Below the pieces are notes generated by a model that saw nothing but the letters and a program-made list of their open reading frames with translations, did not search any database and was not told where the DNA came from. A stretch of 64,000 nt of DNA. It comes from Eledone cirrhosa (taxonomy: Eukaryota). Shown one piece after another: positions 4,784 through 6,256 of this stretch (position 1 is the first letter of the stretch; every line of letters begins with the position of its first letter). A program made the position numbers and the translations under genes. The stretch covers positions 1-64,000 of the forward strand of contig CAXHJY010000573.1 of NCBI GenBank assembly GCA_964016885.1. The letters run 5' to 3'.

Positions 4784-5599
4784 TTAAAATCTCTACTACG
4801 GTAACCCTTCTACCTTTGTTTTGTTTTCATCTTTGTCTCTCTCAACTTTCACTTTCACCTGTTTTTCCTATCTATATTTCACTTCCTACCTCGAGATTTC
4901 CCTTTGCATTGTTGTGGCTTTCTTAAATACGTATTTTTACACATTTCACAATGCTTCAAGCAAACTTTAACACCCTCTTATATATATATATATAATATAT
5001 ATATATATATATATATATATATATATATATATATATATATATATATATATACATATATATATATATATATATATATATATATATATATATATATATATAT
5101 ATATACATATACATATATATGATAAACACGAAATGTGTTTACATTGTAACAGACAAAGTTAGCTATTAATGAAATAAACTAATAAAAGTGAATACAATTT
5201 GTCCGTCTCGATACAAGTCAATAAAGACAAGCTTATATTGGCAACTGCCATGATTCCTGGACATATTTAAATTTCAAAATTCAAACCTGTTCTGTAGACG
5301 AATTTTGAACCTCGAAACCCAAATAGGTTTCGCAATGGTGGAATGTGAATTGAAAAATAAAGAGAATCGAAATGGAATAGAAATAAAAGAGTGAAATATC
5401 CAATGTTAAAACTCAATTGGAACCCTGAATTTTCATATATATTTCTGCTCCCTCACAAGTTGAGCTTATTAAGTTGTGTGTGTTGGACTGTTATTTCTAT
5501 TCAATACACGCTTACCACGTTTGACTAGCGGCGCACGAGGTGACAATTCATCTTTCTGTGTGAACGTTGGCAAATAGTGTTTGTGGCATTTAATCAGAT

Positions 5600-5680
5600 T
5601 CTCTCGCCGATGAAGCCCACGATTATCTGTTACAAACACACTCAGGGCGAAACAAGATTAGGGGTAATCTGTCCGAGAGA
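5600..5680 (+). ncRNA. Type I hammerhead ribozyme, copy 1 (U4C core variant, bulge in stem III)
   Basis: Stem I TCTCTCG/CGAGAGA; core CCGATGA; stem II GCCC..GGGC; GAAA; stem III CA(A)GATTA GGGG TAATCTG; GTC cleavage triplet at 5671-5673. Confidence 0.8.
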
Positions 5681-6050
5681 TATATGGTTATTGAGGCGGT
5701 TTGTATATGTTATCATTCTGTCTGCTTCTTGGTTAAATATTTGAAACAAATGTGGTTTTTCAACCCTTGTAATCTTAGACACACCGTTTACTGTGTTTCT
5801 TACTATATATTATTAATCGGCCCAGTATTTATACTTTGAGCTTAATAGTTACAGGGTTCCAATTGAGTTTTAACTCTAATTTTCATATATATTTCTGCTC
5901 CCTCACAAGTTGAGCTTATTAAGTTGTGTGTGTTGGACTGTTATTTCTATTCAATACACGCTTACCACGTTTGACTAGCGGCGCACGAGGTGACAAATTC
6001 ATCTTTCTGTGTGAACGTTGGCAAATAGTGTTTGTGGCATTTAATCAGAT

Positions 6051-6130
6051 TCTCTCGCTGATGAAGCCCAGGATTATCTGTTACAAACACACTCAGGACG
6101 AAACAGATTAGGGTTAATCTGTCCGAGAGA
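6051..6130 (+). ncRNA. Type I hammerhead ribozyme, copy 2
   Basis: Stem I TCTCTCG/CGAGAGA; canonical CTGATGA (6058-6064); stem II GCCC..GGAC with one mismatch; GAAA; perfect stem III CAGATTA-GGGT-TAATCTG; GTC at 6121-6123. Confidence 0.87.
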
Positions 6131-6256
6131 TATAATGGTTATTGAGACGGTTTGTATATTTTATCATTCTGTCTGCTTCTTGGTTAAATATTTCAAACAA
6201 ATGTGGTTTTTCAACCCTTGTAATTTTAGACACACGGTTTACTGTTTCTTACTATA

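Follow-up and report, generated by a model that had tools for sequence, protein, structure and literature searches.

Penelope-like elements (PLEs) have been proposed to mobilise the non-LTR retrozymes of metazoans (available text of Cervera & de la Pena 2020, PMC7229834), and a locus in the octopod Eledone cirrhosa, at which hammerhead-bearing direct repeats lie in (TA)n close behind a PLE, raises the question of whether these repeats are such a retrozyme, what machinery inserts them and from what template they are copied. A first-pass annotation of the window, by which we mean the whole 64,000-nt stretch analysed (positions 1 to 64,000 of contig CAXHJY010000573.1), had put forward a tandem hammerhead system giving circular RNA and mobilised by a PLE. 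Here, we use the window copy, its relatives across the genome and autonomous PLE families to address these questions in turn.

The window element and its hammerheads

Both a reading of the sequence and a repeat search of the window place direct repeats at 5428-5813 and 5878-6256, with (TA)n on both flanks. The insertion belongs to a repeat family here termed A and comprises about 1.85 units, not two. Its 5' boundary, previously drawn at 5120, has to be moved, as 5119-5404 belongs to a related family, B, on the reverse strand and 5405-5427 is an inverted stub of A itself. The parts of the locus are as follows.

1265..4978 (+): Penelope-like element, 5'-truncated and frameshifted, with its tailed end at 4978
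4979..5120 (no strand): (TA)n target common to three elements
5119..5404 (-): 3' end of related family B (557-nt unit)
5405..5427 (-): 23-nt stub of the inverted arm of A; the last 18 nt up to S2 are missing
5428..6256 (+): main arm of family A (retrozyme), about 1.85 units, whose 3' end is priming site S1, running into (TA)n
5577..5595 (+), again at 6028-6046: strand upstream of the hammerhead and complementary to its loop 2, a predicted blocker or pseudoknot partner
5600..5680 (+): type I hammerhead motif 1, damaged; predicted site after 5673
5674..6123 (+): cleavage-to-cleavage monomer, 450 nt, non-coding
5804..5810 (+): internal TA tract S1 (untailed end), used by 59/139 outer ends; the next S1 copy is the element's end near 6256
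5820..5841 (+): GCUC/GAGC hairpin 3' of S1, with one change here; common to families B, C and D
5885..5892 (+), again at 5435-5442: internal TA tract S2 (tailed end), used by 76/139 outer ends
5897..5915 (+), again at 5447-5465: second GCUC/GAGC hairpin, 3' of S2
6051..6130 (+): type I hammerhead motif 2, canonical core; predicted site after 6123

Both GCUC/GAGC hairpins are putative protein-binding elements. The 450-nt monomer has a GC content of 37% and a longest ATG open reading frame (ORF) of 51 aa, counted around the circle. Family B has a variant-core hammerhead of its own, which sits elsewhere in its unit, outside the 5119-5404 piece. The PLE at 1265-4978 encodes a reverse transcriptase (RT), a CX2-5CxxC linker and a GIY-YIG domain, and is Neptune-like by motif. 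The suggested link between this PLE and family A did not hold up beyond the (TA)n target, there being no sequence similarity between the two and the end sequences being different, and the neighbouring PLE is best seen as another user of that target.

The two hammerhead motifs are real, with predicted sites 450 nt apart: the canonical core 16-mer has 243 exact matches genome-wide, versus three for its U4C form and none for a reversed control. The same counts bear out the earlier expectation that the family majority is fully canonical and the lesions private to the window. In motif 1, stem I is TCTCTCG/CGAGAGA and the core reads CCGATGA (U4C), with an extra A in stem III and a loop change; motif 2 has a CTGATGA core and a G>A mismatch in stem II. 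At 5664 and 6114, one and the same position of the stem III loop, both window copies also depart from family A, each in its own way (G and T versus A).

What does not stand is a complete hammerhead fold in each copy, as stems II and III are predicted with a probability of at most 0.23 in both, compared with 0.97-0.98 for a genomic copy of the majority type given the same short context (82-108 nt). A check against Rfam Hammerhead_1 (RF00163), which the annotation had recommended, succeeded in part: applied to the window copies, whose long loop 2 and stem III count as inserts in the model, it matched copy 2 only, at 22.9 bits (E 0.013), and missed the gathering score of 34. No hammerhead was among the 125 matches listed in an Rfam scan of positions 1-12000. 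In a longer context, the upstream strand GTGTTTGT is predicted to pair with loop 2, abolishing stems I and II, and on addition of 45 nt upstream, a transcript-length context for the family A hammerhead, both predicted stems fall to near 0. This predicted displacement weakens the proposal that the long stem III would allow monomeric cleavage; the pairing may keep the circle closed, may belong to a pseudoknot beyond the folding program, or may reflect weak cleavage.

Family A and its two-site ends

The 450-nt unit returned 1663 first-look candidates, 40 of which were scored and are 91-97% identical. Three contig sets, all from one sample, cover the unit as well. We analysed 95 loci, 40 from this scored search and the others among the first 100 listed positions of the 16-mer, the segmental duplicates L071, L072 and L086 having been removed before counting; loci were picked for a full unit or a canonical 16-mer, which inflates the counts of intact hammerheads and of arms crossing the cleavage site. 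Together with L070, the three duplicates (C1 near 217.4-217.7 Mb) represent one A insertion present four times by segmental duplication. That the genome is an octopod's is borne out by a flanking protocadherin, which is 91% identical to its match in Octopus bimaculoides and 86% to that in Argonauta.

Family A consists of short non-coding tandem repeats of 35-37% GC, with many young copies spread across numerous chromosomes, with no LTRs and with a canonical type I hammerhead in each unit. Arrays run head to tail for up to seven units with no ORF, and the 34 complete monomers measure 424-487 nt. In the four monomers tested, the longest ORF is 51-62 aa and the predicted fold of the circle is better than that of shuffles (z -2.5 to -4.3). 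Among 132 hammerhead segments from this canonical-biased sample, the core is intact in 127 and the core with all three stems in 99, and the cleavage junction is free of indels in 129. The majority sequences of subfamilies A1 and A3 differ at 0/80 positions in the hammerhead and 27/353 elsewhere (Fisher p 0.0045), and those of A2 and A3 at 1/80 and 29/369 (p 0.027), with too few changes to tell in two other subfamily comparisons. Covariation is absent within family A because the hammerhead is nearly invariant there. The L073 array contains six identical 457-nt monomers that have private indels and lie 12 substitutions away from every other locus that was examined, a pattern expected from either one circuit of a circle or recent expansion in place. 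The L047m array has a two-unit periodicity, so that a single circuit of a monomer circle does not account for every array; subsequent duplication of the DNA, or a dimeric template, is suggested there.

The 95 insertions, 44 with two head-to-head arms and 51 with a single arm, provide 139 outer 3' ends, and 135 of these lie at S1 (59) or S2 (76); the idea of a single fixed 3' end was replaced by these two sites after the ends had been mapped. S1 ends fall +137 to +144 and S2 ends +218 to +222 past the cleavage site, about 80 nt apart (two ends scored at +161 are counted as S1, their alignment having run on into the TA flank), and TA-rich DNA follows 122 of the 139. The 5' ends, by contrast with these fixed positions, are scattered. 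Two-arm insertions use the two sites in combination: 40 of the 44 are S1+S2, one is S1+S1, none is S2+S2 and three have one broken end, giving a rule of one site per arm in 40/41 unbroken pairs (p 2e-11). In 32 of the 36 cases that could be compared, an arm resembles its partner more than it does the median other locus, and in 17 no locus is closer than the partner, a similarity that could instead come from one source locus or gene conversion. A snap-back origin of the inverted arm is unlikely, since neither arm is nested in its partner at L070 and L123, and some arms run past a TA tract before they end.

The same end rule is found in autonomous PLEs. In family P, 9/10 pairs combine a tailed with an untailed end, while the tenth is tailed at both ends and has identical flanks, and in family Q all five pairs with both ends retrieved obey it, as do 6/7 pairs of family B when read by eye. 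It is this rule, common to A and the autonomous families P and Q, that provides genomic evidence for the PLE-type mobilisation suspected at the outset. Family A also has the anatomy of a non-autonomous PLE, namely fixed 3' ends, an optional tail, 5' truncation, an inverted 5' arm and a microsatellite target, and we regard it as very probably a non-autonomous element mobilised by a PLE. As for the window, it would fit the two-site rule under a history in which A arrived first, one arm ending at S1 and a short one at S2, and a later insertion of B into the neighbouring (TA)n removed 18 nt from A's S2 arm. Segment 5119-5404 is likely such a separate family B insertion that clipped the inverted arm; an alternative history would be a template switch between B RNA and A RNA. 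The window copy of A is likely a dead insertion.

Related families and candidate partners

A GCUC/GAGC hairpin lies 3' of each TA tract, and this module is also found in B and further families, with hairpin covariation read by eye; A and these relatives make up a superfamily. Family A is significantly similar to two module-bearing relatives (z 9.2 and 5.2); direct similarity between A and B over the module is not significant (z 1.2), and the two are connected by way of these older relatives. The non-A module pattern has 3,527 exact matches genome-wide, versus one for the control.

Family B (5119-5404 on the reverse strand of the window; L032-L042) is a young 557-nt tandem repeat with 1679 candidates, 98-99% identical, and has two-site ends as in A. 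With no CTGANGA and no Rfam ribozyme, it was considered as a hammerhead-free control and then rejected as such when a variant-core fold was found, namely a hammerhead fold that Rfam misses, in which the core is U3-A8-U9 and the stem III region measures 65 nt. Further sister families (L164-L233), with units of ~520-600 nt, carry graded variants of the hammerhead core. Across the sister families, 52 hammerhead-fold matches occur in 53 loci at the homologous place, versus 0-1 in three shuffles, with about six of the 52 looking spurious. Stem I is formed by 13 different complementary pairs, in a scan that required stem I pairing and whose weight therefore lies in the shuffles and the fixed position. 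The cores are canonical, U3-A8, A4, C4 or U3 with G8, and stem III inserts reach ~60 nt.

Taken as sequence evidence, the conservation of the hammerhead across subfamilies, the covarying stem I and the compensatory U3-A8 imply selection for the fold. U3-A8 is a known active natural variant and U4C is also natural (PMC3088659, available text), so that U3-A8 covariation and U4C are common to that survey and this genome; what differs from the survey, as far as its available text goes, is that a single animal genome here shows the variants repeatedly, in several of its repeat families, alongside A4 and 60-nt stem III inserts. The sister families form a natural panel of predicted hammerhead variants missed by Rfam and strict motif searches.

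The search for a partner PLE covered families P and Q and 70 superfamily loci. None of the 70 has a joined PLE ORF, a PLE fragment lying nearby in four, and neither P nor Q carries the TA-tract/GCUC-GAGC module. P was rejected as partner for its lack of similarity (z 1.8) and its different ends, and Q, at which the L014 junction had hinted, for its lack of the module; nor did the non-TA 5' junctions reveal a recurrent partner, 22 among the 51 single arms reaching unrelated DNA. No terminal sequence common to A and an autonomous PLE was found in P, Q or the 70 loci, and no continuity with an RT/GIY-YIG ORF of the kind that marks a pseudo-LTR (pLTR). Junctions with PLE sequence occur at L014, where an A arm lies head-to-head with a PLE ORF (a Q copy), and at L090, where an A arm adjoins a PLE 3' region.

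Family P, to which the neighbouring PLE of the window belongs, is young, with copies 99% identical, a 3451-nt unit and open frames of 887 aa elsewhere. Near 4755-4785, P has a fixed motif (TTGATG, a GGGC/GCCC hairpin and GAAA) where a canonical hammerhead might be expected, in 25/25 loci examined, and within the window copy of P, stretches of 491 nt (2728-3696) and 162 nt are duplicated. In Q (L254 / L259-L278), the fingers region of the RT carries a long insert, although a GIY-YIG domain is present at the C terminus; Q also has a minimal hammerhead and a tail of ~58 nt.

Template, cycle and known systems

Outer arms cross the cleavage site in 109/139 cases, 22 of them at least twice, and 80 exceed one unit, counts that are inflated by locus selection; arms of this kind call for a template that is a ligated circle or an uncleaved multimer. 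A linear cleaved monomer was rejected as template, since none of the 139 3' ends in this sample falls at the site, and apparent 5' ends at +1 were set aside as arms crossing the site by a few bases or as alignment breaks. In L018, L077, L099 and L125, cDNA arms stop in or at the base of stem III just past the cleavage site, suggesting a pause of the reverse transcriptase at that hairpin.

In the cycle that we propose, arrays would be transcribed and cut at each hammerhead, and a host ligase such as RtcB would close the 450-487-nt monomer, RtcB-type ligation of monomers having been shown for other retrozymes (PMC7229834, available text). Alternative pairing with loop 2 would keep the ribozyme off in the circle. 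A PLE protein dimer would bind the two GCUC/GAGC hairpins and nick both (TA)n strands, upon which each DNA end would anneal to one TA tract and two cDNAs would start on one RNA; reverse transcription continuing round the circle would build arrays exceeding one unit, and the cDNAs would then be joined at their 5' ends, mostly flush, otherwise across a few bases common to both. We consider this cycle as a whole, including its circular RNA template, somewhat probable as a model. Back-junction reads would not be diagnostic of it, because the ligated junction is identical to genomic head-to-tail sequence.

A rather unlikely competitor has a PLE mobilise A from uncleaved linear multimer transcripts, with the hammerhead a slow or protein-assisted pLTR passenger and no circle. 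Crossing arms, arrays and two sites are explained equally well by such a template, and it would suit the dispensability of the hammerhead of the PAc element in vitro (PMC11167929), the predicted block of the fold in long context, the uncompensated core changes of several sister families (A4, C4, U3 with G8, U9) and the cleavage in vitro of only 1/9 Xenopus retrozyme dimers. Against this stand the conservation of the hammerhead relative to its flanks between subfamilies (p 0.0045), the covariation of stem I over 13 pairs with a compensatory U3-A8, and the existence of arrays of identical monomers with private indels.

Two further readings dispense with the retrozyme altogether. It is highly improbable that the units are no more than pLTR remnants from an ordinary autonomous PLE: the pLTRs of PLEs do bear hammerheads and produce tandem as well as inverted arrangements (PMC8557442, available text), and A arms are joined to PLE sequence at L014 (ORF) and L090 (3' region), but the units run head to tail without an ORF in arrays of up to seven, the 22 non-TA 5' junctions of the 51 single arms reach unrelated sequences, and there is neither similarity to P or Q nor an ORF link in any of the 70 superfamily loci. 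We give as little credence to a DNA-level minisatellite grown by unequal crossover or duplication around an incidental hammerhead. DNA-level copying is evident in the periodicity of L047m and the four segmental duplicates, but as the main route it is already largely refuted: copies are spread across many chromosomes, sit in (TA)n, have fixed 3' ends while their 5' ends vary, and form inverted pairs of arms of the same kind as those of autonomous PLEs.

To return to PLE-driven copying of a circle, a tentative and, on balance, doubtful extension would make the octopod superfamily circular-RNA parasites of PLEs, in which the portable cis-module of two TA tracts and their hairpins loads the dimer, and both broken DNA ends prime one circle, each at its own site. 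If this were true, the one-ended tail of PLEs would be explained, and the U3-A8, A4 and C4 cores and the branched stem III would work in vivo.

On every feature testable here, family A is a non-LTR retrozyme, its cleavage and circles being predicted. Like the retrozymes in the available text of PMC7229834, it has tandem non-coding repeats, a type I hammerhead per unit, low GC and a predicted well-paired circle, and a mollusc member, from mussel, is known among them. It differs in its unit of 424-487 nt (350-390 bp in mussel), its 7-bp stem III and 26-nt loop 2, and in a circle whose hammerhead is predicted to be blocked, something that the same text reports for some mussel circles only; its insertion ends are mapped and PLE-like and it is known here from genomic sequence, whereas that work includes expression and circles. 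For vertebrates, the available text of Li, Clavereau & Pollet (bioRxiv 10.64898/2026.07.22.740005) likewise concludes that retrozymes are non-autonomous PLEs, and the unit lengths that they report, 51-972 bp, include that of A. They draw on co-occurrence and on similarity to pLTRs across 35 species, with no mollusc in that text; our evidence is insertion anatomy, with no pLTR parent found. As far as these partial texts go, the mobiliser of retrozymes was a hypothesis in PMC7229834, was then backed by co-occurrence and pLTR similarity in the 2026 preprint, and now has a direct genomic footprint.

The closest mechanistic parallel is Poseidon PAc, a PLE that in vitro begins reverse transcription at two internal positions, with the tail between them (Frangieh et al. 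2024, PMC11167929). It is predicted to be a dimer, both cleaves and extends the two strands of its target, and can do without hammerhead cleavage; the tail of PLEs is often at one end only (Craig et al. 2021, PMC8557442, available text). With these systems, as far as the text of the latter goes, A shares two internal starts downstream of the hammerhead, AT-rich targets, an inverted 5'-truncated arm and a one-ended tail. Its tail of ~80 nt compares with 30-40 in the same sources, its TA tracts match the target where PAc starts without homology, and, unlike PAc, it is non-autonomous. The one-site-per-arm rule ties two-site initiation in vitro and the predicted dimer (PMC11167929) to the one-sided tail, and the 120-nt RNA module with its two priming sites is now defined and testable in the existing in vitro assay. 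In the literature searched, with most subscription papers outside reach, neither a counted one-site-per-arm rule nor an octopus or cephalopod retrozyme is described; 235 Hammerhead_1 matches are given for giant squid in the available text of PMC6962438.

The window also contains three more type I hammerhead motifs, of another family, at ~10033 (+), 22049 (+) and 42078 (-), which have a long loop 2 and a palindromic stem III. Further hammerhead repeats lie in the flanks of L161, L092, L014 and L073, with spacings of ~467, 466, 422 and 425-482 nt, respectively, and the genome, judged by such sequences, holds many retrozyme-like families.
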